From NCBI GenBank assembly GCA_022842945.1, contig JALHOO010000001.1:221830-285829 (forward strand): a stretch of DNA of 64,000 bases, in the 5' to 3' direction. The translations under genes were made by a program, and so were the position numbers. The notes beneath the pieces were generated by a model, which was not told the origin of the DNA, made no database searches, and was given only the letters and a program-made list of their open reading frames with translations. This DNA is from Minisyncoccota bacterium (GTDB taxonomy: Bacteria > Patescibacteriota > Minisyncoccia > Phycocordibacterales > Phycocordibacteraceae). The first letter of the stretch is position 1. The number at the start of each line of letters is the position of its first letter. Below are positions 734 through 26,129 of this stretch, in pieces.

Positions 734-747
734 AGTGTACCAAGGAT

Positions 748-983: not shown

Positions 984-1006
984 TGCTGGCAGACCAGGTA
1001 TCGAAC
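984..1006 (+). repeat. B-type junction repeat, copy B1 (tgctggcagaccaggtatcgaac)
   Basis: Shares the left arm TTGCTGGCAG with the A repeat and has a different right arm. It lies 1 nt from the TAG stop of lexA (plus-strand CTA at 1008-1010). Confidence 0.85.
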
Positions 1007-4164: not shown

Positions 4165-5247
4165 TTAACGCGTTAGGGTCCAGGTTGTTCCCTGAATCGG
4201 GAAGGTGCTTGGAACGCTTGCGCCGGTTGTTGCTGATACCACATCGAGCATAAGCGTCTGTCCTGCATAGTTTCCGCTCATACCATTCAAGAGGACTTTA
4301 ATGGAGTAGATACGAATCTGTCCGGGTGGCACAACCGCTGGAAGCGGCACGTACATAAGACCGTTCTTGAAGAGACCAGCTCCATACGTGGTGTAGCGAG
4401 AACCTCCCTTGTCGTCATTTGTTGAAACACTCACAACTGCATCTGTTGAAGCAGAACCGTTCTGCTTCAGAGTAAAGCCGTCGATGTGTGCCGGCTTGTT
4501 GCTCGTGTTCACAACCTTAATGTAGGCAACAGGTATAGAGGCTCCTGGTGCAGCATTCCCTCCTGAAAGAAGTGGAAGCGCACTCATAACAAGGGTACCG
4601 CCCTTAACCGAGGCTGAGGACGGGACACCGTCTCCAACAATAAGGGTGCCTTCTCCAATAGCATCAATCTCTGCTCCCTTCTCGCCGAAGAGGGTTACGT
4701 CGTACGCACCGTCCTTAAGACTCTTTGTTACGCGCACATCCCATTCACCGCTACGCACACGCGTAACCCTGCTCTTGAACGCGAGCTTCCCATTCTCGTC
4801 CCTAATCTCAAGACGCACGGACCTCGTGTCCGTGGCTTCCCCTGAGATGGTTGGTTTTGGGTGCTCTGTAACGAGCGTGTCCTTGTTAAAAGACGCATCA
4901 ACAACCACGAGCTCTACACCGCAGTCTGCTTTGCGGCTGCCGTTTGTGAAGCGGTAGGAATATTCCGTGTCTTTGGTTGGAGAGACGGTTATAGAGTCTT
5001 CGAGATCAATCTCGTCCTTGTCGATATCAATGGCTTCCTTTGCGTTTACTCCTTTCCATTCGATAGTAACCTCGTCTCCCTTTTGAACGAGTACTTCTTC
5101 GGTCCCTTTAAACGTTGCAGAGTCGTAGGGTGTGGTAACGGTAAGCTCGCAGGAGACTCTCGAACTTGCCGCAGAAGCGCTGTTCGGGATGATGGCGAGT
5201 GCGCCAACTATGAAGACGCTGAGCGTCAGAGTGCGTAGTAAGGACAT
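4165..5247 (-). CDS. secreted beta-rich hypothetical protein
   Basis: Signal peptide MSLLRTLTLSVFIVGALAIIPNSASA; 360 aa; no catalytic motif recognised. Confidence 0.5.
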   Translation of the reverse strand: MSLLRTLTLSVFIVGALAIIPNSASAASSRVSCELTVTTPYDSATFKGTEEVLVQKGDEVTIEWKGVNAKEAIDIDKDEIDLEDSITVSPTKDTEYSYRFTNGSRKADCGVELVVVDASFNKDTLVTEHPKPTISGEATDTRSVRLEIRDENGKLAFKSRVTRVRSGEWDVRVTKSLKDGAYDVTLFGEKGAEIDAIGEGTLIVGDGVPSSASVKGGTLVMSALPLLSGGNAAPGASIPVAYIKVVNTSNKPAHIDGFTLKQNGSASTDAVVSVSTNDDKGGSRYTTYGAGLFKNGLMYVPLPAVVPPGQIRIYSIKVLLNGMSGNYAGQTLMLDVVSATTGASVPSTFPIQGTTWTLTR

Positions 5248-5391
5248 AGGTACAAATCTGAATTATCGAAGTAACTGTAGTAAACCGTAGCACGATATGA
5301 AGTATGAAGAGGATGGTGCTTCATGAAGTCTGCAACGCAAAACTCCTGAAGCATGGGCTTCAGGAGTTAAGACGGTATACCCCAAGGGGTC

Positions 5392-5628
5392 TTACGTGCC
5401 TGAGACCCTGTCACCGATGATTGCTTCGTCTGCAGTAGTCTCGATGAGCATCACACCGCTACGTGGGTGAATGCTTGGTGCGGTGTTAATTGCAGAAGAC
5501 GGGGTTGCCGCTTCTGTAGTCATAACCTCACCAGATACGTTTACGTATGCGTAGGTAGCGGCAAGCGTCACTCCTGGGATGGCGACGATCGCTGCTAGAG
5601 CGAATGCACCGACAAGTAGCTTTTTCAT
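5392..5628 (-). CDS. small secreted hypothetical protein
   Basis: Internal Met start gives MKKLLVGAFALAAIVAIPGVTLA signal peptide. A downstream hairpin plus T-tract on the minus strand (5330-5360) looks like its terminator. Confidence 0.4.
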   Translation of the reverse strand: MKKLLVGAFALAAIVAIPGVTLAATYAYVNVSGEVMTTEAATPSSAINTAPSIHPRSGVMLIETTADEAIIGDRVSGT

Positions 5629-5729
5629 ATCAACGAATGTTTTAGTTAATCTGTTAGTACGTGCTACTAACCATAGATGCATCCTACCTGCTACCCTATG
5701 AAGCCAACGTGAAGGCTTCATACTGCGTA

Positions 5730-5978
5730 CTACGATGCTCCCCCTTCGAGATGTCTGGTGAAGTGCTGCTTTATGGTGTTGTCGAGTGCTTTGCTGAATT
5801 CAATAGCGTGCTTTGGGGAGAGAACAATCTCAGAAACCAGTTGACCTGCGGTTGTGTTTGGGCGCACATATGCGAACTGGATGATAACTGAATCGTCTGA
5901 CACCGTTACCTGTGTAGCGTTTACGAATGTTGCGAGTGTGTTTGCGGGAGCCGTTATAGCAATCTGTTTCTTTTCCAT
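5730..5978 (-). CDS. hypothetical protein
   Basis: 82-aa ORF; compact, same strand as its neighbours. Confidence 0.35.
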   Translation of the reverse strand: MEKKQIAITAPANTLATFVNATQVTVSDDSVIIQFAYVRPNTTAGQLVSEIVLSPKHAIEFSKALDNTIKQHFTRHLEGGAS

Positions 5979-7400: not shown

Positions 7401-7414
7401 ACATACCAAGAGTT

Positions 7415-7442
7415 TGCTGGCTGTCTGGGACGATGTTGGAAC
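7415..7442 (+). repeat. A-type cassette repeat, copy A4 (tgctggcTgtctgggacgatgttggaac)
   Basis: One mismatch; same variant as A2. Confidence 0.9.
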
Positions 7443-7463
7443 CATATTGCTCAGCTATTGACA

Positions 7464-7495
7464 AGTACTATATATGTGTAATATAGTTATCCCAG
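7464..7495 (+). promoter_or_regulatory. sigma-70-like promoter TTGACA-N17-TATAGT
   Basis: ttgacaagtactatatatgtgtaatatagt, followed by an AAGGAGAG RBS 5 nt before the ATG at 7520. Confidence 0.5.
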
Positions 7496-7519
7496 CTCAT
7501 TTCAACAAAGGAGAGCACC

Positions 7520-7798
7520 ATGTCTGAGGCCCCTGAGGATAAAAAGGTGTTGGTCGGCGAGCGACTCATCCAAGCTCTGCTGTCCCCGGATTACTTTGAA
7601 TTAGTCCTCGACATCTTCAAGGACAGCACGAGCGTTGCGAGCATTGTCGACGTCTTCGACTGTACGGATTATTCCGATCTCGTCAAAGAGGTCTTCGGCA
7701 ATCTGACCAATGAAGAGGTCAAAGATCTTTTCCGGCCTGCACTTCCCGACGCGCTCCGCCGGTTCCTCGGCGCTCAAAGCGTCATCATCACCTGGTGA
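7520..7798 (+). CDS. hypothetical acidic small protein (cassette gene, array II)
   Basis: Own promoter, strong RBS and ATG; 92 aa; terminator downstream; flanked by repeats A4 and A5. Confidence 0.55.
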   Translation: MSEAPEDKKVLVGERLIQALLSPDYFELVLDIFKDSTSVASIVDVFDCTDYSDLVKEVFGNLTNEEVKDLFRPALPDALRRFLGAQSVIITW

Positions 7799-7802
7799 AC
7801 CC

Positions 7803-7860
7803 GTCCCTTCGTCAAACGAAAACCAAACCTTCGTTTCGGCGGAGGGGCGGTTTTCTTTTA
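7803..7860 (+). terminator. terminator hairpins with T-tract (AAACGAA..TTCGTTT and GGCGGAGGGGCGGTTTTCTTTT)
   Basis: Inverted repeats plus TTTTCTTTT immediately before repeat A5. Confidence 0.45.
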
Positions 7861-7869
7861 TCCAAATAT

Positions 7870-7897
7870 TGCTGGGGGTCTGGGACGATGTTGGAAC
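7870..7897 (+). repeat. A-type cassette repeat, copy A5 (tgctggGGgtctgggacgatgttggaac)
   Basis: CA to GG variant, also seen in A17. Confidence 0.9.
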
Positions 7898-7941
7898 CTT
7901 TATGCAATCTATGTTAGGTTCTGTCTAGAAGGAGTTTTGCA

Positions 7942-8289
7942 ATGGCCCACGACGAAAACAAGTATCTGCTGTGGTGTTTTCTATGGACCACCCACAGCTC
8001 TGACAGACCGGTTAGTGATATTGCGTGCTCGTTACATAGTTCTCTCGCAAAAGGCCAGGAGTTCTGTACGAATTACTGGCGCAACATGCCGGAACACGCC
8101 CCCTCGACCTATCTTGCGCCTACAGGTACTCGCTACCTGTGCCGAGTTGATGAAAAGACTCATAGACGCATCGTGGATAGCGATATTGGCCTCTGGTGCG
8201 TAACGGTTCCTCCCAGTACAACAGAAGCACTTGCCCTTCTTCCCCCTACTGACTTTATGTCACTCACAGAGGGCAGGATGCCGGCGTAA
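7942..8289 (+). CDS. hypothetical Cys/Trp-rich small protein (cassette gene, array II)
   Basis: AAGGAG RBS 7 nt upstream of the ATG; 115 aa; lies between A5 and B2. Confidence 0.5.
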   Translation: MAHDENKYLLWCFLWTTHSSDRPVSDIACSLHSSLAKGQEFCTNYWRNMPEHAPSTYLAPTGTRYLCRVDEKTHRRIVDSDIGLWCVTVPPSTTEALALLPPTDFMSLTEGRMPA

Positions 8290-8380
8290 TCTATGCTACC
8301 GATCTGATGAATCAAGACGGGATTCCCTGAGATAAGAAGCCGAAAACGAGAAATCGTGAGTAGGCTTTTCTCTTTTTTAT

Positions 8381-8403
8381 TGCTGGCAGACTAGGTATCG
8401 AAC
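8381..8403 (+). repeat. B-type junction repeat, copy B2 (tgctggcagactaggtatcgaac)
   Basis: Ends 2 nt before the TAG stop (plus-strand CTA at 8406-8408) of the M23 peptidase gene. Confidence 0.85.
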
Positions 8404-8405: not shown

Positions 8406-9773
8406 CTACAAATACGACATCGGATTCAAGTACGCACTCGGAGGAGCAACCGGCATAACCGCACCTCCTGCACTGCAGCCTGTTCCGGCCGGTTGTCCCT
8501 GCTGCTTGCGCCATGCGCCAAGGTCCATAATCTTTACACCCGTTGCAACATACACACTGAAGTGGAGGTGGGGTCCGGTTGCGTAGCCTGTCATACCTGA
8601 GAGGCCGATAGTTTGGCCGGTTGAGACACTCTGTCCTGCAGATACGGTAATACTTGAAAGGTGCGAGTATGAGGTAGCAAGCCCGTTCGGGTGCTTAATA
8701 AGTACCCACTTTCCGAAGGAGAAGCATCCTGGAACAGCGTCTGTGTTTCCGGTCCCCATAACCGTGCCTGAAAGTGCTGCCTGCACCGGGGTACCGCTTG
8801 GCATGCCGATATCGATAGCGTTGTGCCCGGAGCCGTTATAGATCTGTGAGTTGGCGGTTGCAAACGCCGTGTTGCCGAAATACTGCGTTATGCAGCGCGG
8901 GTTCCCCAGTGCCCCTGCCTTCCCTTCGCACGCTGCAGCAAAGCTTGGAGAATATGGCCACGCAAGCACGCCCGTTTGCACGGTAGGCACCTCAGCCTGC
9001 CCCACGGCCTTAAGACTGTTCTCAAGACTTGAGAGTGCCTGCTCGAAGAGTGCACGCTCTGCACGCTTCCGGGTTATGAGATCCTGGTACACGCTCTCCT
9101 GGTTCTTGGTCTGTGAGAGAAGCCTATCCTTCTCGCTCTTCTGCACATCAAGAGACTGCTTCTGGATACCAAGATCGCTCGCAAGGTTGGTAAGTTCGTT
9201 CTTCTTTGCGTCAACGTCCTGAAGCTGTGCACCAAGCGCATCCTTCGCTTGTGAGAGATTCGCTACGTTCGCACGAAGCGCCGTATTCAACGATGCTGCG
9301 TCGTCAATTGCCGTCCACGCTTCTGTGAGGTCGCCAGACGCAAACACCTGCTCAACGAGCGAGATCTCTCCGGCTTCTGCCATATTCCGGATAGATTCCT
9401 CAAGGGTACGCTTGTCGAGAGCGATAAGTTGCTCGGTGTCCTCAATGTTGTACGAGAGCTCGTTCAACTGAAGATTCGTAGAGGAAATCCTCGTCTGTGT
9501 AAGGTTAATCTGCGTGCTCGTCTGCTGGCGCGTTATATCAATAGACTTAATAGCGGTCTGCAGTGTCTGAGACTGTCCGTTCAAAATAAGGCGCTGGCGC
9601 TCTGCCTCTGCAATCTCGGCCTCCAAATCTTTAATCCTCTGTGCGTGCTCACTTATCTGGCTTTTGATCTCGTCTTCGCTCTGTGCAAAGGCTCCTTCCG
9701 GTACAACGGCACCTATACCGGCACACGCAACCAGAAGAACGAGAAGAAAGGATAAGGAACGCAAGGTCTGCAT
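8406..9773 (-). CDS. M23 family metallopeptidase with N-terminal coiled coil (EnvC/LytM-like murein hydrolase)
   Basis: Signal peptide, long coiled-coil region, and a C-terminal M23 domain with HxxxD (GHNAIDIG) and HLH (GPHLHFSV) motifs. Confidence 0.8.
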   Translation of the reverse strand: MQTLRSLSFLLVLLVACAGIGAVVPEGAFAQSEDEIKSQISEHAQRIKDLEAEIAEAERQRLILNGQSQTLQTAIKSIDITRQQTSTQINLTQTRISSTNLQLNELSYNIEDTEQLIALDKRTLEESIRNMAEAGEISLVEQVFASGDLTEAWTAIDDAASLNTALRANVANLSQAKDALGAQLQDVDAKKNELTNLASDLGIQKQSLDVQKSEKDRLLSQTKNQESVYQDLITRKRAERALFEQALSSLENSLKAVGQAEVPTVQTGVLAWPYSPSFAAACEGKAGALGNPRCITQYFGNTAFATANSQIYNGSGHNAIDIGMPSGTPVQAALSGTVMGTGNTDAVPGCFSFGKWVLIKHPNGLATSYSHLSSITVSAGQSVSTGQTIGLSGMTGYATGPHLHFSVYVATGVKIMDLGAWRKQQGQPAGTGCSAGGAVMPVAPPSAYLNPMSYL

Positions 9774-9776: not shown

Positions 9777-11210
9777 TTAGAGTATAGCAAACGCTGTTCG
9801 TATTCGGGAAATTGCTTCTTCAGTACCCAGTATGGATATAAGCGTAAACGGGTCCGGAGACTTCTCGGCTCCAGAGAGCGCATAGCGAAGCGGCCAGAGT
9901 ACCGCTCCTCTACCCCCCTTTCCCTCTGCTTCCTTCTCGTCTGCAAACGGCATAAGCGCCATCTTAACGGCCTCAGCGGGAAGAGACACCGGAAGACCTC
10001 CTAGTATCTCGAGTGCGCCTTCTAGGGCTTGTTTTGTAAGTCCTGGGCGGTCTTGCGGCTCTTTTGCCGTAAGAAGATCTAGGGAAATCTCTGGAGTCTC
10101 GAAGAGGCAGGATAGTTCTCCGTTAAGCATGTCGCGTGCTTCTGCAAACGTATACGCACGTTCCTTTATGAGGGGCACTGCTTTCTTCAACCGCGCATCA
10201 TCCGTTGCATGCAATTCTCCACGGGTTATGAACTCTTCATCGGTAAGGCGACGCATGTGCTCCCGGTTTAGGTGCTTCAACTTGTCCTCGTCGAACTGCG
10301 CACCAGACTTCTGAATGCGCTCAAGTGTAAAGGCTTCAATAAGTCCAAAAGGAGTGAAGAACTCCTGATCTCCTCCAGGACTCCAGCCAAGGAGTGCCAA
10401 GAAGTTCAACATAGTCTCAGGGAGATACCCTTCACGACGGTAATCAAGGATATCCTTTGCGCCGTCTCTCTTTGAGAGCTTCTTATGTCCTCCTTCGCCT
10501 AGTATTGGTGGAAGTGTTGCAAACGCAGGCGGCACTTCTCCAAGCGCCTCGTACAGAGACAAGAACTTCGGTGTAGACGACACGAACTCCTGCCCACGCA
10601 TCACGTGCGTTATCTTCATCTCAATGTCGTCTATGACATGCGCGAAGTTGTAGGTTGGGTACCCATCGCTCTTTATGAGTATGAAATCGTCGAGTGCCTC
10701 TTCTCCGGCAGACAGTGTTCCCATAACCACGTCTTCCCATTCGTAGCGCTTAATAACCGGCACCTTGAAGCGAAGCGGCTGGGTACCGTCCCATACACCC
10801 AACGTCTCTGGACGGTGCTCGCGGAAGAGAAACGGCCGCTTCTCTGCTTCTGCTTTGGCACGCAATGCTTCAACCTCTTCTTCGGTATAAGGATCTGGGT
10901 ATGCAAACCCCGCGTCAATAAGTTGCTTTGCGTACGCACGATATGAGTCGAGACGCGAAGACTGGATGTATGGCTCATAGGGTCCGCCTATATCAATACT
11001 CTCGTCCCAGTGTATGCCGAGCCATTTCAAAGACTCCATGATGTGGCCAATAGAGCCTTCAACCTCGCGCTCCTTGTCTGTGTCCTCAATACGAAGCACA
11101 AACTTCCCATTATGCTTGCGTGCAAAGAGCCACGCATAGAGCGCGGTGCGGATGCCGCCAATGTGCATAAACCCCGTAGGGCTTGGGGCGAATCGGGTAC
11201 GGACGGTCAT
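9777..11210 (-). CDS. gltX: glutamyl-tRNA synthetase
   Basis: HIGH motif (PSPTGFMHIGGIRTA) and KMSKS-like KLSKRDG. Confidence 0.85.
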   Translation of the reverse strand: MTVRTRFAPSPTGFMHIGGIRTALYAWLFARKHNGKFVLRIEDTDKEREVEGSIGHIMESLKWLGIHWDESIDIGGPYEPYIQSSRLDSYRAYAKQLIDAGFAYPDPYTEEEVEALRAKAEAEKRPFLFREHRPETLGVWDGTQPLRFKVPVIKRYEWEDVVMGTLSAGEEALDDFILIKSDGYPTYNFAHVIDDIEMKITHVMRGQEFVSSTPKFLSLYEALGEVPPAFATLPPILGEGGHKKLSKRDGAKDILDYRREGYLPETMLNFLALLGWSPGGDQEFFTPFGLIEAFTLERIQKSGAQFDEDKLKHLNREHMRRLTDEEFITRGELHATDDARLKKAVPLIKERAYTFAEARDMLNGELSCLFETPEISLDLLTAKEPQDRPGLTKQALEGALEILGGLPVSLPAEAVKMALMPFADEKEAEGKGGRGAVLWPLRYALSGAEKSPDPFTLISILGTEEAISRIRTAFAIL

Positions 11211-11219
11211 ATACAGACT

Positions 11220-12371
11220 CTACCCGTTCTTGGCTTCATGGGAAAGCCCAATCTTCAGAGCTTCTTCAGCTATAAGGCGGCCGGCAAGAGGGTTCGCAAA
11301 CCCAGCCGCAGCACTCTTCATGCGCTCGGACACCGCGGGATCAGTACTGATGCGGTGTGCTTCAGAGGCTAGGAGATTTGGGGTGAGGTTCGCTTCCTCA
11401 AGTACAACCGCCGCACCGGTATGCGCATAGGCGTAGGCGTTGGTGCGCTGATCGTGGCTAATGGACTCAGGTATAGGAATAAGGATAGACGGTACGTTCC
11501 AGAGCGAAATCTCTGTTATGGACCCGGTACCCGCGCGCGTAATGATGATGTCGGCACTTGCGGCGGCTCTTCGCATAGTCTCTACGTTCATGTAGGGATA
11601 CGTGTGATACCGCTCCGCGTGTCCTCCCTTTCCAAGTATCACGCTTGCGGTCTGACGCACGCTCTCAAAGTGCGTCTTTCCTGTCTGATGCACAACGTTC
11701 GCAAAGGACACGAGAGACGGAAGCGCATCAAGTACGGTTTCGTTAATACGCAGAGACCCAGAGGAGCCGCCAACAATGAACACTGTTGGAAGGGTTGGAT
11801 CAAGACCAAGGGCGCTCATCGCCTCAGCGCGGTCTGGAAGCTGCATGAGGTTCTTGCGTACCGGAATACCTACCTTTGCAATCTTGTTGCGCACCTTCGC
11901 CGGGAATCCTGCAATAGCGCTCTCAAAGGCAACGGCAATGCGCGTTGCGTGCTTGGCACCAAGCAGGTTTGCGCGTCCAGGCTTCGCATCTGATTCGTGC
12001 ACAATAATAGGAATACGCAGCAAGGAGGCGGCAAGTACCGTTGGCACGCTTGCATATCCACCCTTTGAAATAACTACGTCTGGATAGAGCTTCAGGAGAA
12101 TAAAGAAACTCGAGACAACGCCTGCGAGCGTAACAAAGATATCGGTTACGTTTGCGAGAGAGAAATAGCGGCGCATTTTCCCTGCGGGCGCCTTGAGGAA
12201 GACAATGTCATTTGCGAAGAGAGCTTCCTCGTCATACGGCTTGTCTGCGATGTAGTAGAGTCTCGGTGGGAGTAGCTGCTGCTCTTTAACCAGGTCCCTC
12301 ATGGACTCTGCTATAGCAATAAGCGGATAGAAGTGTCCTCCTGTACCCCCTCCTGTGAATAGAATCTTCAT
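11220..12371 (-). CDS. murG: UDP-N-acetylglucosamine--N-acetylmuramyl-(pentapeptide) pyrophosphoryl-undecaprenol N-acetylglucosamine transferase MurG
   Basis: N-terminal GGTGGHFYPLIAIAE glycosyltransferase signature; sits in a dcw cluster context next to ftsW. Confidence 0.85.
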   Translation of the reverse strand: MKILFTGGGTGGHFYPLIAIAESMRDLVKEQQLLPPRLYYIADKPYDEEALFANDIVFLKAPAGKMRRYFSLANVTDIFVTLAGVVSSFFILLKLYPDVVISKGGYASVPTVLAASLLRIPIIVHESDAKPGRANLLGAKHATRIAVAFESAIAGFPAKVRNKIAKVGIPVRKNLMQLPDRAEAMSALGLDPTLPTVFIVGGSSGSLRINETVLDALPSLVSFANVVHQTGKTHFESVRQTASVILGKGGHAERYHTYPYMNVETMRRAAASADIIITRAGTGSITEISLWNVPSILIPIPESISHDQRTNAYAYAHTGAAVVLEEANLTPNLLASEAHRISTDPAVSERMKSAAAGFANPLAGRLIAEEALKIGLSHEAKNG

Positions 12372-12396: not shown

Positions 12397-13506
12397 CTAC
12401 GCCAGCGTCTTCTTCTTGGATCGGTTGGCAGCCACGTTCAGAATAACGCCAACGGACGCCAAGGCAGCTAAAAGAGCCGTGCCTCCGTGCGACACAAAGG
12501 GCAGAGGCAATCCCGTTAAGGGCACAATACCTAGCATGGCGCCTATATTCATAAACGCGGATATGGTTATGAGGAGCGTAAGGCCCGTTGCGGCATACGT
12601 ACCAAATGCGCTCGCAGATTGGGCCGCAATGGTAAAGCCGCGCGTGGCAAACGCCGTAAAGAGAAGTACTAAGAGCACGGTACCTATGAACCCGAACTCT
12701 TCCCCGTACACCGCAAACACCGAGTCCCCTACGGGCTCTGGCAAGTAGTTGTACTTCTGTGCACTCTGTCCAAACCCGCGTCCAATCATCCCCCCTGAAC
12801 CAATAGCAATAAGGGACTGTTGAATCTGGTACCCGCTCCCCAGTCCGTCGCTCTCTGGAGAAATGAACGTCTTCACGCGCTCAAGCGCATACGGGCGGAG
12901 TGTAAGGGCAACCGCAATGAACACAATACCCGCCATAATAATGAGGCCAATATCGCGCAGACGGGCACCTGCAATGAAATACAGCGTCATAGCCGTAGCG
13001 CCAATAACCAGAATCGTACTGTTGTTTGGCTGAAGGGCGAGCAAGATAACCGGGAGACCAATAATCACGCCAAACGGTATAAGGCCCGTCTTGAAGTCTT
13101 TGATCTTCTCTTTAGCGCGCGCAAGGAACCACGCGAGCATCAAGATAACGGCAGGCTTCAGGAATTCAGCGGGCTGAATGGTAAACGGTCCAACATCAAT
13201 CCAGCGCGTAGCACCTCCTGCGTGCACTCCAAGTCCTGGGATGAATACCAAGGACGTAAGGAGAAGCGCGAATATATAGAACGGGATAACTGCGCGCTGT
13301 AGAAGCTGTTGTGGAGTGAATCGAATAACGAGGAGCGCTATAACGCCCGGAATGAGACCGAGCGCTAGCTGTGTAAGAGCAAGGCGACCAATAGACGCGC
13401 CTTCGCGTGCAAGAAGCCCTAATGCAGCTGATAGGAATATAGCCGCGCCGCCAACAACAAGGATGGCGACGATAAGAGCGAACACTCTATCTCCGGAAAG
13501 ACGCAT
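12397..13506 (-). CDS. ftsW: SEDS family peptidoglycan polymerase FtsW/RodA
   Basis: About 10 TM helices, conserved SEDS loops, adjacent to murG. Confidence 0.8.
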   Translation of the reverse strand: MRLSGDRVFALIVAILVVGGAAIFLSAALGLLAREGASIGRLALTQLALGLIPGVIALLVIRFTPQQLLQRAVIPFYIFALLLTSLVFIPGLGVHAGGATRWIDVGPFTIQPAEFLKPAVILMLAWFLARAKEKIKDFKTGLIPFGVIIGLPVILLALQPNNSTILVIGATAMTLYFIAGARLRDIGLIIMAGIVFIAVALTLRPYALERVKTFISPESDGLGSGYQIQQSLIAIGSGGMIGRGFGQSAQKYNYLPEPVGDSVFAVYGEEFGFIGTVLLVLLFTAFATRGFTIAAQSASAFGTYAATGLTLLITISAFMNIGAMLGIVPLTGLPLPFVSHGGTALLAALASVGVILNVAANRSKKKTLA

Positions 13507-13550
13507 GACCTCCCTATTCTAACGCATGGGTGGTGTGTTAAGGCGTGTAT

Positions 13551-13578
13551 AGCTGAATGTTTGGGAGGATGTTGGAAC
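13551..13578 (+). repeat. degenerate A-type repeat, copy A7 (gctgaatgtttgggaggatgttggaac)
   Basis: Right arm TGGGAgGATGTTGGAAC is conserved and the left arm has diverged. It marks the ftsW-proximal end of array III. Confidence 0.6.
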
Positions 13579-13634
13579 CCTGCACTTAGCCTGATATAGT
13601 GCCGCCAGACGTAACCCTCAACCAGAGAGATCCA

Positions 13635-13802
13635 ATGCAGACTCAAGATATTTCTGAAGACGGTGACATCCTGCGGACCGTCCATATCCCTCAATCCGAT
13701 GATCAAGCGCTGCGCGAGATCGCACAAGAAGAAGGAAGGACTGTTCCTGGATTGATACGCGAAGCGTGTATGAACTCGTTTGCGGTGCGTAAGAAATCTT
13801 GA
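13635..13802 (+). CDS. ribbon-helix-helix (CopG/Arc-like) small protein (cassette gene, array III)
   Basis: AGAGAG RBS then ATG; predicted beta-strand RTVHIP then helices DDQALREIAQEEGRTV and PGLIREAC; 55 aa. The ORF track lists a longer form starting at 13599. Confidence 0.4.
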   Translation: MQTQDISEDGDILRTVHIPQSDDQALREIAQEEGRTVPGLIREACMNSFAVRKKS

Positions 13803-13853
13803 CCACTACCCACTAGCGGAATTCCCGCTCCGGTGGGTTTTCTGTTTTATTCT

Positions 13854-14198
13854 CTACACCCTCCTCCACTCGCCGGTCTCTTCATTAAGTATTGCAACTC
13901 GATTCCCTCCAACCGGCATGCCGTTCTCGTAATAGATAACGCTGATGGCCGTCTCAGTTGAAACGTTCTGCCTACCGTGATTACCTTTTCTCATGTACTG
14001 ATATTCGATTGTCTCACCTCCGTTCTCTCCAGTACGCTCTACTTCTCGCAGATACACCCCTTGCTCGTCTGAGAGCTCCCGACCAAGAGTATACCCTTCT
14101 ATATACTGAGAGAGTGCATCGAGTACTTCCTGGCTTGAGAGGATTGTTTCTCTCTTGTTCTCTATGCTATGCGGTTGAGACCCGGGGAATTTTTCCAT
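13854..14198 (-). CDS. hypothetical protein (cassette gene, array III)
   Basis: 114-aa ORF. A bidirectional hairpin lies between it and the RHH ORF, and repeat A8 lies just upstream of its start. Confidence 0.45.
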   Translation of the reverse strand: MEKFPGSQPHSIENKRETILSSQEVLDALSQYIEGYTLGRELSDEQGVYLREVERTGENGGETIEYQYMRKGNHGRQNVSTETAISVIYYENGMPVGGNRVAILNEETGEWRRV

Positions 14199-14222
14199 AG
14201 ACTGATATTAGCATCTGGCTAT

Positions 14223-14250
14223 TACTGGCAGTCTGGGACGACGTTGGAGC
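14223..14250 (+). repeat. A-type cassette repeat, copy A8 (tActggcagtctgggacgAcgttggaGc)
   Basis: Three mismatches. Confidence 0.8.
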
Positions 14251-14299
14251 CAAACTCACTTAATGATACTGTCCTCAAGGATCCAAGAGGAGAATTGCC

Positions 14300-14518
14300 A
14301 TGACAACACACCAAGAAGCTGTGGATGGCCGCCACGCCATCCACAGGAAGTACCGCGATCTGGTCACAGGAGTAGCGGTTATCCAACACCCGACTGAGCC
14401 AGGAAGTTGGGCCGTGCGCCTGACACTCCGAAGCGAGGTCGCACCAGGAACCATTGCATCGGAACTGGACGGCATAACAATTGTGACAGAGGTGGGTGGA
14501 CCGGCAAATCTTTTATAG
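14300..14518 (+). CDS. hypothetical small protein (cassette gene, array III)
   Basis: AGAGGAGA RBS then ATG; 72 aa; terminator hairpin GCGCAGGACAAAATCCTGCGC downstream. Confidence 0.45.
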   Translation: MTTHQEAVDGRHAIHRKYRDLVTGVAVIQHPTEPGSWAVRLTLRSEVAPGTIASELDGITIVTEVGGPANLL

Positions 14519-14537
14519 AAAGCCACTGGTCTTAATG

Positions 14538-14562
14538 AGCGCAGGACAAAATCCTGCGCTTT
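14538..14562 (+). terminator. terminator hairpin GCGCAGGAcaaaaTCCTGCGC plus TTTACCG
   Basis: Perfect 8-bp stem immediately before repeat A9. Confidence 0.45.
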
Positions 14563-14567
14563 ACCGT

Positions 14568-14595
14568 TGCTGGCAGTCTGGAACGACGTTGGAAC
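14568..14595 (+). repeat. A-type cassette repeat, copy A9 (tgctggcagtctggAacgAcgttggaac)
   Basis: Two mismatches. Confidence 0.9.
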
Positions 14596-14682
14596 TTTTT
14601 TAGCAGACGATTACTTGACCCAGGTTCTAACTAATGGCTAGATGTAACCAGGAAGCATAGTAATTGAAACGGGAGAATTTTA

Positions 14683-15057
14683 GTGGCAAAAATTGGTCTT
14701 AAACGGAGCAAAAGAAGAAGAACATCAGGAAGAATGCGTGGAGGCGGTAGTGGGAACAGAAAAACTTGTAGAGTATCCCTCCGCACTATTGCGCTACTCT
14801 TTCCTCCTAGAAGCGTACAGAGAGTGTACCTGCACGGAAGGTGGCAGAAATCGAGAGGCCGACGACCCTGTCTTAGTCTAGAAAACCTGCAAGACCCTCG
14901 TCTCGCATATGAGCAGGCAGAGGAGCTCGTGGGCGAATACATTCGTTCAGTCCTAAGTACGCCCCATGCATATGGCAAATGGCAATGGGAAGGTCGCGGA
15001 CGTGAATTAGCGAAAGCGATTTCTGAACAGGTGCCTCCGGAAGAAGTGTTCTGGTAA
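14683..15057 (+). CDS. hypothetical protein (cassette gene, array III; start uncertain)
   Basis: GGGAGA RBS then GTG. The N-terminus is low-complexity R/G-rich, the C-terminal half (RLAYEQAEELVGEYIRSVL...) is protein-like. An alternative 62-aa frame also exists (14693..14881). Confidence 0.3.
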   Translation: MAKIGLKRSKRRRTSGRMRGGGSGNRKTCRVSLRTIALLFPPRSVQRVYLHGRWQKSRGRRPCLSLENLQDPRLAYEQAEELVGEYIRSVLSTPHAYGKWQWEGRGRELAKAISEQVPPEEVFW

Positions 15058-15064
15058 CCTCAAG

Positions 15065-15100
15065 CCGTCGAGTCTCTAGAAGACTCGACGGCTTTTCTTT
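15065..15100 (+). terminator. rho-independent terminator AGCCGTCGAGTCTctagaAGACTCGACGGCTTTTCTTTT
   Basis: 13-bp perfect stem plus T-tract immediately before repeat A10. Confidence 0.6.
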
Positions 15101-15105
15101 TATAT

Positions 15106-15133
15106 TGCTGGCAGTCTGGAACGATGTTGGAAC
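15106..15133 (+). repeat. A-type cassette repeat, copy A10 (tgctggcagtctggAacgatgttggaac)
   Basis: One mismatch. Confidence 0.9.
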
Positions 15134-15184
15134 CATGATAATAAAATCCCGCCTTCTTAGGGGCGGGACTTCATGGAGCCTAAT

Positions 15185-15517
15185 TTAGGTAGTCTCCCGG
15201 ATAGTTTCCAGATGGGCGTCGACGAGTTCGACCAGTTTTTTCAATACGGCGTCGCGAGCATAGACTGCGGGCAGGTTGGATCCAGAGATCCAGCGGTAAA
15301 GCGTGACCGGCGAAACACCGAAGACATGCGCCATGCTCTCTACATTGCCGAGTTTCGAAATAACCGCGCCGACAATCTGAGAGAACTCTTCTCTGTCTTT
15401 GACGTTCGTTGTCTCGAGAACTTCCTTCGCAGTCTCAAACCACGAGACATCGATGAGTCGAAGCGTAGTGAGCACGCGGCTCTGAGGACGCTCCGCCTTG
15501 ATCGGGTGAACGGTCAT
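15185..15517 (-). CDS. XRE-family helix-turn-helix transcriptional regulator (cassette gene, array III)
   Basis: HTH motif MAHVFGVSPVTLYRWISG; 110 aa; minus-strand terminator AAGTCCCGCCCCTAAGAAGGCGGGATTTT downstream of its stop. Confidence 0.55.
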   Translation of the reverse strand: MTVHPIKAERPQSRVLTTLRLIDVSWFETAKEVLETTNVKDREEFSQIVGAVISKLGNVESMAHVFGVSPVTLYRWISGSNLPAVYARDAVLKKLVELVDAHLETIRETT

Positions 15518-15612
15518 ATGTTGATACCCTCTGTGAAAAGCAAAAAAGAACGATACCGCATAGTACCCTGCAAATCAGATTTAGCAACGTAATCTAATTG
15601 TTGTAGAAGTTA

Positions 15613-15635
15613 TTCTGGCAGACCAGGTATTGAAC
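15613..15635 (+). repeat. B-type junction repeat, copy B3 (ttctggcagaccaggtattgaac)
   Basis: Abuts or overlaps by 1 nt the TAG stop (plus-strand CTA at 15635-15637) of mraY. Confidence 0.8.
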
Positions 15636-16696
15636 TATTTCAACAACGCCAACGCCAACCCAAAGATACCCGCGATAATCGTAATAACCCAGTAGCGCAT
15701 CGTAACCTTGTACGCAGGCCAGCCAATAGCTTCAAAGTGATGGTGGATAGGGGCAATACGGAAGATCTTCTTCTTCAGTACCTTCTTGCAGAACACCTGG
15801 ATCATACTCGTAGCAACCGTAACGGTAAGAGGAAGTGCGATTATGGGAAGTACGGATACCCCAACCCCGTCTCCAAGCACGTCTGTCGAGAACGCCGTTA
15901 TAGCGAGCGCAACCGTAAGGGCCATAGTGCCCGTCTCAGACAAATAGAAGCGTGCGGGCGGAATATTAAACCAAAGGAACGCGAAGAGAGATCCTGAGAC
16001 ACAGGCAGCAAACGCTGCAAGTGTCGTCTGTCCCTGTGCAAACGCAATGCCTGCATACGTCATGAAAATAATGGCGAACACGCCTCCTGCAAGCCCATCA
16101 ATGCCGTCTATAACGCCGCCGGCATAGAGCGCGAGCGTAACCAACATAAAGAACCCAATGAAGAAGACCCCAAGCTCAACAGGTCCTACAAACGGCACGC
16201 CAACCGTAGACACATCAAGCTTCTCGTAAAACCACCAGCCCGCAAACGCACCAATAGCGCCAACAACAAGAAGACGCCAGCGAAGACGCAGTCCTCCAGA
16301 AGATCTCGTAACCTCAAAGATGTCGTCTATAAGGCCAACGGCAGCTCCCGCAGCAAGCGCAAACAACGGAAGCCACGTCTGACTCCTACTTATGAAATCA
16401 AAGGAGGTAAACGGTTCTCCAAAGAAAAGCGCCAGTACCCAAAGACCAAGTGCGGTTATGAGTGTCGACGCCCACACAATAATGCCGCCCATGCGCGGCG
16501 TGGAGACCTCCCTTTCTTTGTGAAGCTCGTCAAAGAGTGGGGTGCCGTTCTTGTCCCCCATGCTGTTTCCCTTCCCGCCAACCTTCTTCCATGCACGGAA
16601 CTTGAAGAGGTAGTGGGTCAGTATTGGGGCAAGCGCAATACCAATAACGAATGACGCAACGGACGGGATTAGGACACGTGCCGCATCGATAATCAT
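15635..16696 (-). CDS. mraY: phospho-N-acetylmuramoyl-pentapeptide transferase MraY
   Basis: Polytopic membrane protein with conserved MraY loops (DDxxD-like GLIDDIFE, HHHFE motif PIHHHFEAIGW). Confidence 0.85.
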   Translation of the reverse strand: MIIDAARVLIPSVASFVIGIALAPILTHYLFKFRAWKKVGGKGNSMGDKNGTPLFDELHKEREVSTPRMGGIIVWASTLITALGLWVLALFFGEPFTSFDFISRSQTWLPLFALAAGAAVGLIDDIFEVTRSSGGLRLRWRLLVVGAIGAFAGWWFYEKLDVSTVGVPFVGPVELGVFFIGFFMLVTLALYAGGVIDGIDGLAGGVFAIIFMTYAGIAFAQGQTTLAAFAACVSGSLFAFLWFNIPPARFYLSETGTMALTVALAITAFSTDVLGDGVGVSVLPIIALPLTVTVATSMIQVFCKKVLKKKIFRIAPIHHHFEAIGWPAYKVTMRYWVITIIAGIFGLALALLK

Positions 16697-16702: not shown

Positions 16703-17674
16703 CTAGCGGATGCCCGCAAAGTATTCGTTCGTGCGATTAAGCAGCGTGTTCACGTCTGTGAAGCGTCCTTCTCTCGAAGACCCGAGCACCACAATTGCAA
16801 TAGGACGTCCCATACCCGCGTCATACACAATAGCGAGGTTTCCTCCGGCAAGATCCGTAAACCCAGTCTTTGAGAGGAGTGCGTTCGGTACGCGCGTTAT
16901 GCCCGGGTTTGTGTTTGGGAGCGTGTGGAGCACACCCTCGCGTGAACGAATGCTCGAGGAAGACTGCACGGTTGCGCGGGCAATCTCTGGTGCCTCCTCA
17001 AGAAGCGCTCCGGACAGAAGTGCAATGTCACGTGCCGAGCCGTATCCGCCAGACACCGAGGTGCTCTCGTCGAGGCCCGTACCGTTGAGTGCATAGGTCT
17101 GCGCAAGCCCAACCGCACTCGCAGCACTCGCAAGCATCGACTTGCCTGAGGTTGCGCGCGCGAGGGCTGCACTCTCAGCAATAGCTGCGGTTGCATCGTT
17201 AGAGGAAGAGACGAGCGCAATACGTGCAAGGTCTTCAAAGCGGAAGGTCTGCCCCTCGGCAAACCCACTCTCTCCGTCTGAGAGAAGTGCGGTATCGGTA
17301 ATAGTAACAACGGAATCTGCACTCAAAGACTCAGCGGCCGCGTATACCGTGAGGAGTTTTGTGAGGGACGCGAGTGGAAGCTGTGAACGGCTGTTCTTCT
17401 CGTACAGTGTTTCGCCGGTAACCAGGTCGTACACAATGGCGGACTTCCCTTCAAGAGCTACACCAGTGAATGCCTCAGACGCCGGCATAGACACAGGAGC
17501 CGGAGCCTCAACAAGCGCTACCGGTGCTTCCTTCTGTGCAAAGAGGGGTGCAACGAGAACCGTAAGGGAGAGGACGGCAGTGCCGGCAATGAGTGCGGTT
17601 GCTGCCTGCTTCTTCTGATGACGCTTTTCAAGGCGTCGTATCAACGTCTTTAGGTCTGGAGTGGGTGTGCTCAT
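16703..17674 (-). CDS. D-alanyl-D-alanine carboxypeptidase (S11, PBP5/6-like)
   Basis: N-terminal TM anchor, SxxK active site (LASLTKLLT), SxN-like and KTG-like (KTGFT) motifs. Confidence 0.7.
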   Translation of the reverse strand: MSTPTPDLKTLIRRLEKRHQKKQAATALIAGTAVLSLTVLVAPLFAQKEAPVALVEAPAPVSMPASEAFTGVALEGKSAIVYDLVTGETLYEKNSRSQLPLASLTKLLTVYAAAESLSADSVVTITDTALLSDGESGFAEGQTFRFEDLARIALVSSSNDATAAIAESAALARATSGKSMLASAASAVGLAQTYALNGTGLDESTSVSGGYGSARDIALLSGALLEEAPEIARATVQSSSSIRSREGVLHTLPNTNPGITRVPNALLSKTGFTDLAGGNLAIVYDAGMGRPIAIVVLGSSREGRFTDVNTLLNRTNEYFAGIR

Positions 17675-23916: not shown

Positions 23917-24181
23917 GACACCCTCCTTCAAGGATCTAGCCGTAGTGGCTTTGTCTGCATACTAGAACTTCGCATGACGCACCGAAGGTTTCCAAACAAG
24001 AACGTCCCGCATATAGCGGGACGTTCTTTTGGTGCAGTTAGTGCGAGTGCACTGGAACCAAATCATCACAGAACTACGAGAATTGGCCGAAATCTGGGAG
24101 GTGCTCGAAGATCGTCAATAAGAAAAGACCCGCCATAGTCGTAAGACAATGGCGGGCCGATAGACTGTCGATGGTGGCCAG

Positions 24182-24631
24182 CTAGCCTGACTCCTGATAC
24201 TCCTCGAGCACGCGGATGAACGGATACTGTTGGGCGCTGAACGCGTAGCCGCGCAGCAAGTCCTTCATTCCCCGGTACTCCTCACGGTGTCCGGTGTTGA
24301 TGGAAATGCGATTCGACCACCAGTAGAAGCCGAACCCCTGCGCAGCGATAAACTCGCGGTAATGGGTCGACTCGAACTGAACGAGTCGACAGTTCAGTGC
24401 CGCACGAGCTCCGGACGTAATGCAGACACGCTGGGGTCTCGTGTCGACAGTCGACACGAAGTCCCACGGCGCATGCGCGTACCAGCCGGCGTCACGCTTG
24501 CCCAGTTCCCCGGTGAAGGGGTTCCAGGTGAGGGCGATGTGGTAGGGCTCGACGAAGGTGAAACTGGTGACGAGCACCAAGCACACCGCCGCGACACTCC
24601 CAACAATGCCTCCAATGACACGACGACCCAT
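24182..24631 (-). CDS. membrane-anchored hypothetical protein, paralog 1 (high-GC islet)
   Basis: Start MGRRVIGGIVGSVAAVCLVLV (TM helix). It is homologous to the upstream ORF and its ATG overlaps the upstream TAA (TAATG). The ORF-track N-terminal extension to 25018 overlaps the paralog in another frame and is likely spurious. Confidence 0.45.
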   Translation of the reverse strand: MGRRVIGGIVGSVAAVCLVLVTSFTFVEPYHIALTWNPFTGELGKRDAGWYAHAPWDFVSTVDTRPQRVCITSGARAALNCRLVQFESTHYREFIAAQGFGFYWWSNRISINTGHREEYRGMKDLLRGYAFSAQQYPFIRVLEEYQESG

Positions 24632-25103
24632 TACTGGGTCACCGGCGAGGCCGACGGATCGCCGCCTGGGGCTTCCTCGTTGCGAAGCTCGCGCAGGATG
24701 GTCAGGAACGGATAGGTCCGGCCGCTGCCATCGTAGGCGTAGCTCTTGAGGATGTCGTTGAGCGCGGCCTGGCCGTAGTCGCCGCGGCCGTGCCAGGACA
24801 GGAACAGTTCCAGGCCGGCCGAGTTGAATCGGACCAGCTTGCAGTTCAGCACCCGCTGGTTTGCGTTGATGCAGACCTGCATCGGCCGACCGTCGATCAC
24901 ATAGATCTGCTGGAGCCACGGAGTCTTGTGGTTCCAGCCGGTCCGAGCCAGCGGACTGATCCGGCCGGTCGTCGCGTCGAATTCGTAGCCGTGCTGATAG
25001 TTGTCGACGAAGCGCCACGAAAGGAGGAAATAGGTACCTCCCGCCAGTGCCGCAAACGCCAAGGCGACGCCGGCGATGAAGCCGATAAGCGTTCTATTCA
25101 TAC
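24631..25103 (-). CDS. membrane-anchored hypothetical protein, paralog 2 (high-GC islet)
   Basis: GGGAGG RBS then MNRTLIGFIAGVALAFAAL. Shared motifs with paralog 1: FV(D/E)xY, QVCI/RVCI, LNCKLV/LNCRLV. Confidence 0.45.
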
Positions 25104-25273
25104 TAGCCTCCCATCTCAAAGTTCGAGACAAGCACGGACAAGACCGTGCAGGTTGACGACGGATGTCGTTCCAGCACTTTTATATAACAATATTAGGCAC
25201 TATGTCAAGTCTCTAACCCCACCCAGACCAAAGCACCCTATAGGGTGCTTTGGTTCCAAAACTCTTCTTAGGG

Positions 25274-25356
25274 TGCGCCGGGGAGGATTCGAACCTCCGA
25301 AGCCGTGAGGCGACAGGTTTACAGCCTGCATGTTTTGACCACTTACCTACCGACGC
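25274..25356 (-). tRNA. tRNA-Tyr (anticodon GTA), class II with long variable arm
   Basis: Acceptor stem GCGTCGG/CCGGCGC, anticodon loop CTGTAAA and T-arm GGAGG-TTCGAAT-CCTCC; CCA not fully encoded. Confidence 0.75.
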
Positions 25357-26129
25357 GTCAAGCTCTCGTACCGGTTCTGGTGCTTCGCATTCATAGGCTG
25401 AATCTCTGCGAAGAATCTCTCCACATCGTCTCGCTTCGTTACATAAATGCAATCTGAACTCAGCTCCGATACTCGATATCCTAACCTTCGCAACATAGCC
25501 TGTAAAGCGAGAAGCAGCGGGATCGACTTATTGGTAAAGGACAGCTGCACGCCGAATCGAAGCTTATAGACCGAGCCGTCCGTATCAAAGAACCCTCTCA
25601 GGAAGGAACGCATGTATGCTTCCTTCTCAAACAGCCATCCAGGCACACCCACTTGAGCTGCCACCTTGTTTGATACCAGTCCTTGGACAATAAGCCATCG
25701 GGTAAGCTCGACCGAACCTATGTACACATCGTGAAAACCATTACTTCTGTGGCAAATAGTTGCAGGAACCTTGAACAGAGAAGTCATGAGCGCTTGCACG
25801 TAACAGACGTAGTTATATTCCTTAGTTCCGAGGGTAACGAATGTCTGATACGTGCCTACATGTCCATCACCTAGCATAATCCCGAAGAATTCAGCGAGGT
25901 CCTCTGACCGTTTTACGGGAATAGTAAGGTCAGTACGTTTTCCAAGATAGGTGCTCTTGAGTTCAGGACAGGTGGGTATTGCTAGACGCTTCAGTCTATC
26001 GAATACCGTTTTGGATGATATAGAAAGAATCGCCCCGACCTCATTAATAGTCTTATTCTGACGAACATAAAGCTCGAGCAGTGCTTCTCTATGTAAATCC
26101 TCCTCTTCAGTTGTCCATCTCCTTGCCAT
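25347..26129 (-). CDS. LAGLIDADG family homing endonuclease with N-terminal HTH domain
   Basis: Two LAGLIDADG-type motifs (FFGIMLGDGHV and GFFDTDGSV) and an N-terminal HTH (INEVGAILSISSKTVFDRLKRL). The 3' end overlaps the tRNA-Tyr 5' end by about 10 nt. Confidence 0.65.
   Translation of the reverse strand: MARRWTTEEEDLHREALLELYVRQNKTINEVGAILSISSKTVFDRLKRLAIPTCPELKSTYLGKRTDLTIPVKRSEDLAEFFGIMLGDGHVGTYQTFVTLGTKEYNYVCYVQALMTSLFKVPATICHRSNGFHDVYIGSVELTRWLIVQGLVSNKVAAQVGVPGWLFEKEAYMRSFLRGFFDTDGSVYKLRFGVQLSFTNKSIPLLLALQAMLRRLGYRVSELSSDCIYVTKRDDVERFFAEIQPMNAKHQNRYESLTRR

Follow-up and report, generated by a model that had tools for sequence, protein, structure and literature searches.

A putative integron-like cassette array between mraY and ftsW of a Paceibacteria genome, docked at a copy of the tRNA-Gln 3' end

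The 64,000-nt stretch analysed here, referred to as the window (Minisyncoccota bacterium, assembly GCA_022842945.1, contig JALHOO010000001.1, positions 221,830 to 285,829), carries an array of small genes and short direct repeats, array III, between the cell-wall genes mraY and ftsW. Array III is probably one of at least four copies in the window of an integron-like cassette system that is distributed across Paceibacteria. On the minus strand the order is mraY, the anchor repeat B3, four repeat-bounded cassettes, a degenerate terminal repeat A7 and ftsW-murG (Table 1). Family scans and repeat mapping thus confirmed the placement of the array proposed in a first-pass annotation made from the sequence alone. 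Since an identical array is present in an independent Logan assembly contig (L311, 3 samples; loci are designated by L and a number), array III is not an assembly artefact. The window MraY is 90 % identical to MraY of Patescibacteria/Paceibacteria metagenome-assembled genomes (MAGs), and on this basis the window is assigned to a Paceibacteria genome, within the candidate phyla radiation (CPR).

The repeats are copies or derivatives of the 3' end of tRNA-Gln, which the first-pass annotation had missed. Repeat B (GTTCGATACCTGGTCTGCCAGCAA) is the 3' end of tRNA-Gln(UUG), comprising the T-arm and the 3' strand of the acceptor stem, and B3 is a slightly degenerate copy of the same part. With ARAGORN, tRNA-Gln(UUG) genes ending in B were located in the metagenome loci L201, L258 and L301, where arrays begin at them, and L205 and L223 have a separate B copy with a tRNA-Gln gene directly upstream of it. 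Repeat A (GGTTCCAACATCGTCCCAGACTGCCAGCAA), of about 30 nt, aligns with B at both ends, the common ends being GGTTC... and ...CTGCCAGCAA, with a 4-nt insertion in the aligned middle. Conservation continues beyond this core, with A[T/G]AAA upstream and an AT-rich stretch downstream; the full A site measures 30-35 nt. The window contains 15 A and four B copies, all on the minus strand. Eleven window sites match the 29-mer A consensus with at most three mismatches, again all on the minus strand, compared with none expected from 100 shuffles.

The same architecture was found well beyond the window. A metagenome set of 110 contigs, matched by an A 23-mer, contained 277 A and 28 B sites; strands were never mixed within a locus and B, wherever detected, stood at the upstream end of the A sites. 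The median site spacing was 531 bp (330-970 bp at the 10th-90th percentile). Genome loci were picked via MraY and are hence unbiased with respect to A; among these, A/B arrays were present in L001, L003, L005, L006, L009, L032 and L046, with MraY identities of 56-90 %. Within the window the arrays take up about 10 % of the sequence, and array I is possibly cut by the window edge.

The B sites of the window follow lexA, an M23 peptidase gene, mraY and alaS. Half of all B sites (18 of 36) adjoined a long co-oriented open reading frame (ORF), lying -1 to +4 nt from its stop codon, which was TAG in 15 cases and TAA in three. As the tRNA-Gln bases preceding B are CTAG, the docking site may include the TAG stop codon itself, or insertion may select TAG stops. 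B was found at the same M23 stop in L001, L003, L005, L006, L215, L255 and L305, i.e. in eight genomes with the window. B-like remnants follow the mraY stop in L001, L006 and L032, the last with at least five A copies there. It seems from these sequences that the mraY stop is a recurring docking site.

Two other identities for the repeats were considered and rejected. A 20-mer of A occurs in more than 120 IMG/VR contigs (L081-L160 among them), all within one C5 DNA-methyltransferase gene. The identity covers the first 20 nt of the A site and is a coincidence with a conserved C5 cytosine methyltransferase stretch (VWDDVGTF...FPCQ), the flanks being unrelated; the A-specific 23-mer and the B/tRNA-Gln pattern gave no viral matches. 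Neither A nor B was found to be an attC-like hairpin or a known RNA: as single-stranded DNA, A had minimum free energies of 0 to -0.3 kcal/mol, no better than shuffles, and no Rfam match was obtained in array III.

The genes that the first-pass annotation had listed for array III are present, with some of them placed on the wrong strand. The ORF of cassette 1 has weak Pfam matches only (HTH_28, HTH_17 and P22_Cro, helix-turn-helix (HTH) families). The gene of cassette 2 is probably on the plus strand and has no Pfam match; another gene caller chose an 87-aa minus-strand ORF that starts within the A repeat. The same caller agreed on the 72-aa plus-strand gene of cassette 3. In cassette 4, a 114-aa gene is accompanied by a ribbon-helix-helix (RHH)/CopG gene (RHH_1, E=6e-4). 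Cassette 4 is a composite of two fused cassettes, with the intervening A site lost near position 13850: in L282 (76 % nucleotide identity) and in L315/L316 a complete cassette consists of the 114-aa gene only, and the 41 nt that follow this gene are identical to the beginning of a cassette in L003. The fusion, together with the degenerate B3 and A7, shows that array III is eroding.

The cassettes themselves appear to be discrete mobile units bounded by the repeats. An all-against-all comparison of 220 inter-repeat segments revealed at least six cassette pairs that are 76-95 % identical across different arrays or positions, some of them lying between B and A in one array and between two A sites in the other (Table 1). 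Past the 30-nt repeat, the identity of each pair is down to about 25 %. For the 114-aa gene of array III, 28 homologues were obtained, all from Patescibacteria-type sources. It lies exactly between two A sites in L315/L316, where the B of the array follows a uracil-DNA-glycosylase gene, and it is also a cassette in L282 and L312-L314, while its homologues in L317 and L318 have no detectable repeats. The array III cassette proteins had no match in the mraY loci of 80 relatives.

In L318, which is from another CPR genome, the homologue of the 114-aa gene and a second small gene (4912-5795) lie between rplE and rpsN of the spc operon. Terminator-like hairpins are present in this insert, with no recognisable A or B site.

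Cassettes are about 250-1000 bp long (median about 500 bp) and usually have one intact ORF, the longest ORF covering about 77 % of the inter-repeat spacer (median). The cargo is very diverse: 157 unique cassette ORFs fell into 150 clusters, and Pfam matches were spread over 48 families, none of which was found in more than three of the 150 representatives. Among the families were AAA_33 kinases, NUDIX, GNAT, cupin, Imm5-like, HAD and histidine phosphatase (His_Phos) proteins and transporters. ORF orientation relative to the repeats was mixed (107 vs 90). Such a profile is that of chromosomal integrons.

A mechanism may be proposed from these features. B, a copy of the tRNA-Gln 3' end, docks the array right at a housekeeping gene's stop codon, in this case that of mraY, and cassettes would be gained, lost and exchanged whole via recombination at A and B. 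One primary site with a repeated secondary site, strict polarity and mobility in units together point to site-specific recombination at A and B, most likely carried out by a recombinase of this type whose gene lies elsewhere in the genome. As B is retained beside the gene and A on the distal side, the crossover would probably fall within the ...CTGCCAGCAA end that the two have in common. A more far-reaching proposal, to which we would give about an even chance, is that this is a new Paceibacteria system that forms the main accessory-gene reservoir of these streamlined genomes, with multiple arrays, tRNA-Gln mimics docking at essential-gene stops or at tRNA-Gln, cassettes of about 0.5 kb, short unstructured attachment (att) sites and a non-integron recombinase encoded elsewhere.

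Several results weigh against this interpretation. Scans of the larger window ORFs with Pfam, NCBIfam and PHROG profiles gave no tyrosine or serine recombinase, and neither tblastn with XerD and gamma-delta resolvase nor an Xer hidden Markov model (HMM) detected one in the window. None was present next to tRNA-Gln in L201 or L258. A search with the Xer/tyrosine-recombinase HMM, covering every ORF of 90 aa or more in the window and in 190 loci from genomes and metagenomes, yielded only seven Xer-like genes, two of them (L239 and L252) beside arrays. The A site has neither dyad symmetry nor a fold, in which it differs from attC and departs from what is usual in a tyrosine-recombinase core site, and its conservation of at least 95 % at most positions in the metagenome loci is inflated, each locus having been picked by an exact 23-mer match. 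No circular cassette and no empty/occupied polymorphism within one population was observed, and no cassette gain or loss was found between near-identical contigs, loci with near-identical cassette runs being colinear. Two further points concern the mraY-ftsW junction discussed below: a query with the MurD of the distant relative L080 yielded 6067 MurDs from CPR and other sources, but no contig of the window clade could be linked to any of them, and the location of murD was not found; and the ftsW-murG promoter is a putative one.

With regard to the Xer-like genes, the one in L239 (5394-6303) ends about 20 nt past the last A site of the array and the one in L252 (3817-5454) about 930 nt past it. 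In the more distant relatives L050, L072, L073 and L057 the M23 gene, which bears B in the window clade, has an Xer-like gene just downstream. The genes adjoining tRNA-Gln are dus and those for a clamp-loader subunit and an M10 peptidase, and ORFs in large inter-repeat segments resemble housekeeping genes (purD, typA, ribonucleotide reductase and def), judged by eye from the translations.

The main rival to a site-specific recombinase is homologous exchange, which we consider unlikely. No dedicated recombinase would be needed if cassettes were taken up by natural transformation and exchanged by RecA-type homologous recombination, with the A repeats as portable homology; continued exchange would also keep A uniform across lineages. 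The absence of a linked recombinase would then be understandable, as would that of any symmetry or structure in A of the kind expected at such a core site; double crossovers in flanking A sites would likewise give homology ending at the repeats, and pilin-like genes are common in these loci. However, with repeats of about 30 nt RecA-dependent exchange would be working at its lower length limit, and such exchange replaces cassettes and does not easily add any. Nor does it account for the seeding of B exactly at stop codons, for B x A joints with only about 10-12 nt in common, for the B-first polarity and single orientation, or for the origin of B from tRNA-Gln, which is typical of integrase targets.

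The second rival, which we regard as distinctly improbable, sees the arrays as graveyards, i.e. tandem decayed remnants of larger tRNA-Gln-targeting integrative elements (tycheposon- or satellite-like) with no current cassette mobility, each cassette being what remains between successive partial-tRNA att scars. B is indeed a partial tRNA-Gln, longer partial duplicates of tRNA-Gln exist (the second copy in L201), array III shows decay in its degenerate B3 and A7 and the loss of one A site, and tycheposons are known to accrete in tandem at tRNA sites (10.1101/2020.12.28.424599). Yet no integrase or element-backbone fragments were detected in 192 unique cassettes of up to 1 kb. Decayed remnants are also difficult to reconcile with the tight cassette size, the usual single intact ORF, in array III with its own terminator, and the occurrence of the same small cassette in different arrays with homology ending at the repeats. 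Furthermore, A is more than a simple piece of tRNA, being well conserved and distinct in sequence.

The closest functional counterparts of the arrays are sedentary chromosomal integrons and clusters of attC sites lacking integron-integrases (CALINs). In common with these they have short, mostly single-gene cassettes in one site orientation, a proximal primary site (B, resembling attI) and a repeated site after every cassette (A, resembling attC). The cargo is similarly diverse and mostly of unknown function, including GNAT, NUDIX, cupin, immunity and HTH/RHH genes, the same cassette occurs in different arrays, and distal sites decay. The attC sites of integrons are imperfect inverted repeats of 57-141 nt; they form a hairpin and keep their structure while varying in sequence, and integron cassettes are mostly promoterless, co-oriented and expressed from the promoter Pc. 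A is, in contrast, 30-35 nt long, conserved in sequence and unstructured. No intI adjoins the array or is present anywhere in the 64-kb window, there are many anchors (four in 64 kb), each at a housekeeping-gene stop codon or tRNA-Gln, and the array III cassettes have their own terminators and genes on both strands, with no Pc-driven polarity. The arrays thus resemble integrons/CALINs in function, yet they lack the intI, attC hairpin and Pc polarity by which these are defined.

Modules of other known systems share some of these properties. The pdif/Xer modules of Acinetobacter plasmids have sites of about 28 nt with an 11-6-11 dyad in alternating orientation, and their recombinase is encoded elsewhere. 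Here, too, small gene modules are bounded by short conserved sites, the recombinase would act in trans, and the only tyrosine recombinases near any array are Xer-like (L239 and L252), but A and B have no dyad symmetry, by inspection of the alignment, and are always direct repeats, and the anchor is the 3' end of a tRNA and not dif. The spacing of 330-970 bp and the mostly coding content differ from clustered regularly interspaced short palindromic repeats (CRISPR), in which non-coding spacers of 25-75 nt separate repeats of about 30 nt. Miniature inverted-repeat transposable elements and repetitive extragenic palindromes are terminally inverted or palindromic, whereas A and B are direct repeats only and have no fold. 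The tycheposons of Prochlorococcus, kilobase-scale elements located at genuine tRNA or tmRNA genes, bring a tyrosine recombinase and a replication module of their own (10.1101/2020.12.28.424599). The attachment site is in both cases the 3' part of a tRNA gene, tandem pile-up leaves partial-tRNA repeats, and an accessory-gene reservoir is provided in a streamlined genome without classical mobile elements. The units described here are, however, about 0.5 kb, ten times smaller, and without an element-encoded recombinase; their internal repeat A is a diverged derivative that is only partly tRNA-like, and most anchors are tRNA-Gln mimics behind protein-coding genes. In the literature we found no paper linking Patescibacteria, CPR or Parcubacteria to integron-like arrays, cassette arrays or tRNA attachment-site islands, and the cassette system is apparently undescribed.

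The first-pass annotation had drawn attention to the array mainly because it occupied the place where murD was expected, and murD is indeed absent both between mraY and ftsW and from the window. No Mur ligase was found among the window ORFs of at least 399 aa scanned against Pfam and NCBIfam, which were all but one; the single unscanned ORF (33289-33927) is wholly inside the scanned lysS-like ORF 32723-34186. Searches of the window by tblastn were empty both with the E. coli MurD, a query which did recover the L080 MurD at 4e-23, and with the CPR MurL-MurD of L080. When window proteins were mapped onto the mraY loci of the 80 relatives, one per species, mraY and ftsW were both present in 73, always as neighbours on the same strand. 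The gap between them was below 50 bp in 39 loci, 50-150 bp in nine, 150-400 bp in two, 400-1500 bp in 18 and larger in five. All 56 loci carrying scpB-dac-mraY-ftsW-murG-gltX-M23 were colinear, and the MurD probes had no match in any relative locus except L080, leaving 72 of the 73 without murD at this position. The array therefore does not fill a murD slot, as had been supposed; the other suggestion of the annotation, that it sits in an ancestral mraY-ftsW gap, is borne out by the synteny of the relatives.

L080, a Staskawiczbacteria MAG, is the most distant relative (50 % MraY identity) and serves as the outgroup. Between its mraY and ftsW, directly upstream of the latter, it has an 860-aa MurL-MurD fusion (13542-16124; TIGR01087 265 bits vs a cut-off of 212), and a second Mur ligase is located upstream of mraY. 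MurL is the UDP-MurNAc-L-Ala-L-Glu epimerase domain, and several database MurD homologues share the extra domains PF26298/PF26299. The fusion suggests a route to D-Glu in some CPR in which L-Glu is added and then epimerised.

That insertion of the array caused or accompanied the loss or relocation of murD, the second alternative of the annotation, could draw on the absence of murD from the junction and the whole window and on its presence at that position in L080. It is nevertheless very improbable and already effectively refuted. In 48 of the 73 relatives (MraY identity 52-78 %) mraY and ftsW are less than 150 bp apart with neither murD nor repeats, from which it follows that the loss of murD predates the array and is independent of it, and in other relatives the junction holds unrelated single genes (pilin-like, HD-domain, methyltransferase, NTPase-like, GNAT-like or Maf-like). 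Judged from this synteny, murD left the mraY-ftsW position in the ancestor of the window clade, long before the array, and its absence is an old, lineage-wide rearrangement. The murD-free arrangement is thus shared by repeat-free relatives, as the annotation had anticipated for a coincidental position, with the actual location of murD not found. The junction is an insertion hotspot across the clade.

In L002 (88 % MraY identity, higher GC), type-IV-pilin-like genes with GFTLIELLVVIAIIGIL N-termini (11059-11629 and 12735-13782) occupy the mraY-ftsW and ftsW-murG gaps without A/B cassettes, the same junctions being reused by another kind of small gene.

The annotation had further concluded that transcription must read through or bypass the cassette terminators for ftsW-murG to be expressed, and this is not supported by the conserved features of the junction. 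Strong intrinsic terminators in array III lie on the mraY strand after the HTH gene and on the plus strand after cassettes 2 and 3 and the RHH gene. A -10-like TAGAAT box precedes ftsW and is found just upstream of the ftsW start also in L001-L007, L009, L010, L013, L020 and L038, with the variants TATAAA in L011, TAAAAT in L036 and TACAAT in L016. The DNA upstream of the box is unrelated among the genomes that have it, and in L038 the box is present although the entire mraY-ftsW gap is 14 nt. TAGAAT is accordingly a candidate for a promoter belonging to ftsW-murG itself. In the simplest reading, mraY transcripts would end after cassette 1 and ftsW-murG would start separately. A junction that is a boundary between transcription units poses no paradox over essential-gene expression and fits the use of the site as an insertion hotspot; the array would be tolerated here since this boundary is ancestral and murD-free.

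A promoter function was also considered for the repeats. A as a -35 element of the cassette genes was rejected, as no -10 enrichment was detected at 16-18 nt spacing in 192 cassettes. The wider notion of the repeats as regulatory or RNA elements of the host (terminators, processing sites, promoters or small RNAs), set among ordinary lineage-specific small genes, can point to the TTGGAA on the plus strand of A, used as the -35 box in one promoter-like match, but is the least credible of all, given also the lack of predicted structure in A and of Rfam matches in the array, the fixed repeat orientation against mixed ORF orientation, and the shift of cassettes between genomic contexts as units.

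The canonical cluster of division and cell-wall genes (dcw cluster) has the order mraZ ... murF-mraY-murD-ftsW-murG-murC ... ftsZ, described in a survey that left out CPR (PMC8871954). The locus had been labelled a dcw cluster, which holds for the co-orientation of mraY, ftsW and murG on one strand in the canonical relative order but not for the rest: the actual cluster is dac-mraY-ftsW-murG-gltX. Upstream of mraY there is no mraZ-rsmH-ftsL-ftsI-murE-murF, but a D-Ala-D-Ala carboxypeptidase-like gene (dac), scpB, uppP, scpA and pepA, and downstream of murG there is no murC-(murB)-ddl-ftsQAZ, but gltX and the M23 peptidase gene. The outgroup L080 retains a Mur ligase upstream of mraY and murD, in its murL-murD fusion, before ftsW, whereas in the window clade dac, scpB and scpA stand upstream, gltX and M23 downstream, and the locus has neither murD nor any further mur or fts gene.

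Table 1 Features of array III, its neighbourhood, the other arrays of the window and cassettes shared between arrays (A-A, between two A sites; B-A, between B and A)
Feature	Position	Strand	Remarks
B3, anchor site	15612-15635	-	GTTCAATACCTGGTCTGCCAGAAT; first G is the G of the mraY TAG stop
Cassette 1	15134-15611	-	HTH/Cro-like ORF 15185-15517(-)
Intrinsic terminator hairpin, cassette 1	15141-15174	-	after the ORF; -20 kcal/mol, z=-3.9, then U-run
A site	15105-15133	-	1 mismatch to consensus GTTCCAACATCGTCCCAGACTGCCAGCAA
Cassette 2	14596-15104	+ (probable)	hypothetical ORF 14683-15057, true start uncertain
Terminator hairpin, cassette 2	15062-15094	+	-24.9 kcal/mol, z=-7.1
A site	14567-14595	-	2 mismatches
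Cassette 3	14251-14566	+	72-aa hypothetical gene 14300-14518(+)
Hairpin, cassette 3	14537-14561	+	
A site	14222-14250	-	3 mismatches
Cassette 4	13579-14221	both	114-aa gene 13854-14198(-); RHH/CopG gene 13599-13802(+)
Two-way hairpin, cassette 4	13808-13838		between the 114-aa and RHH/CopG genes
A7, degenerate terminal A site	13550-13578	-	6 mismatches to consensus
TAGAAT box (-10-like)	13516-13521	-	9 nt upstream of ftsW ATG
mraY	15635-16696	-	TIGR00445 E=2e-34; TAG stop 15635-15637 abuts/overlaps B3
ftsW	12397-13506	-	TIGR02614 E=1.5e-97
murG	11220-12371	-	TIGR01133 E=2.7e-68; 25 nt between ftsW and murG
dac	16703-17674	-	NCBIfam; upstream of mraY
scpB, scpA, pepA	upstream of mraY	-	NCBIfam
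uppP	upstream of mraY region	+ (opposite strand)	NCBIfam
gltX	9777-11210	-	NCBIfam; downstream of murG
M23 peptidase gene	8406-9773	-	NCBIfam; downstream of gltX
Array I	326-1006	-	B1 983-1006 directly after TAG stop of lexA (1008-1706); 2 A sites
Array II	7414-8403	-	B2 8380-8403, 2 nt after stop of M23 gene (8406-9773); 2 A sites
Array IV	50045-52739	-	B4 52716-52739 directly after TAG stop of alaS (52740-54656); 7 A sites
Shared cassette, first of array IV (B-A, after alaS)	52390-52715		L223 7001-7326 (A-A), 88 %
Shared cassette, array IV (A-A)	51636-51962		L263 1508-1834 (A-A), 84 %
Shared cassette, L003 first (after M23)			L242 first (after another gene), 87.5 %
Shared cassette, L263 (A-A)			L300 (B-A), 79 %
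Shared cassette, L270 (A-A)			L305 (B-A), 83 %
Shared cassette, L254 (A-A)			L259 (A-A), 95 %

Some observations were made elsewhere in the window. A LAGLIDADG-domain ORF (25347-26129) runs with its stop into the 5' end of a tRNA-Tyr gene (25272-25356, minus strand); GC is 0.60 at 24001-25000 compared with about 0.52 elsewhere, and a 278-aa ORF (24182-25018) has no Pfam or PHROG match. The region 24001-26129 may be an undetected structured RNA or an intron/homing-endonuclease remnant. The product of alaS has only 638 aa, fewer than usual, and its C-terminal part is apparently missing, judged by length. The window is unusually dense in aminoacyl-tRNA synthetase genes, comprising gltX, asnS/aspS-like, lysS-like and tyrS genes, a second class Ib (W/Y) gene and alaS. 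The ORFs 46227-47483 and 60826-61908 have no Pfam match; in PHROG they matched weakly a baseplate wedge protein (3e-6) and phrog_1843, of unknown function (2e-17), respectively, and may encode phage-derived or surface proteins.

The murD finding as first stated matters little, being an old rearrangement with the array placed at a transcription-unit boundary. The cassette system is of wider interest. Few mobile elements have been recognised in the tiny genomes of CPR bacteria, and the way in which these bacteria acquire accessory genes is poorly understood. The system described here would fill the niche of integrons with different parts: a tRNA-derived docking site, short linear att sites, many docking sites per genome and no linked integrase. 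Should the recombinase be found, the arrays would represent a new system of site-specific recombination, compact in its site of about 30 nt, and would provide a handle on gene flow in uncultured episymbionts.

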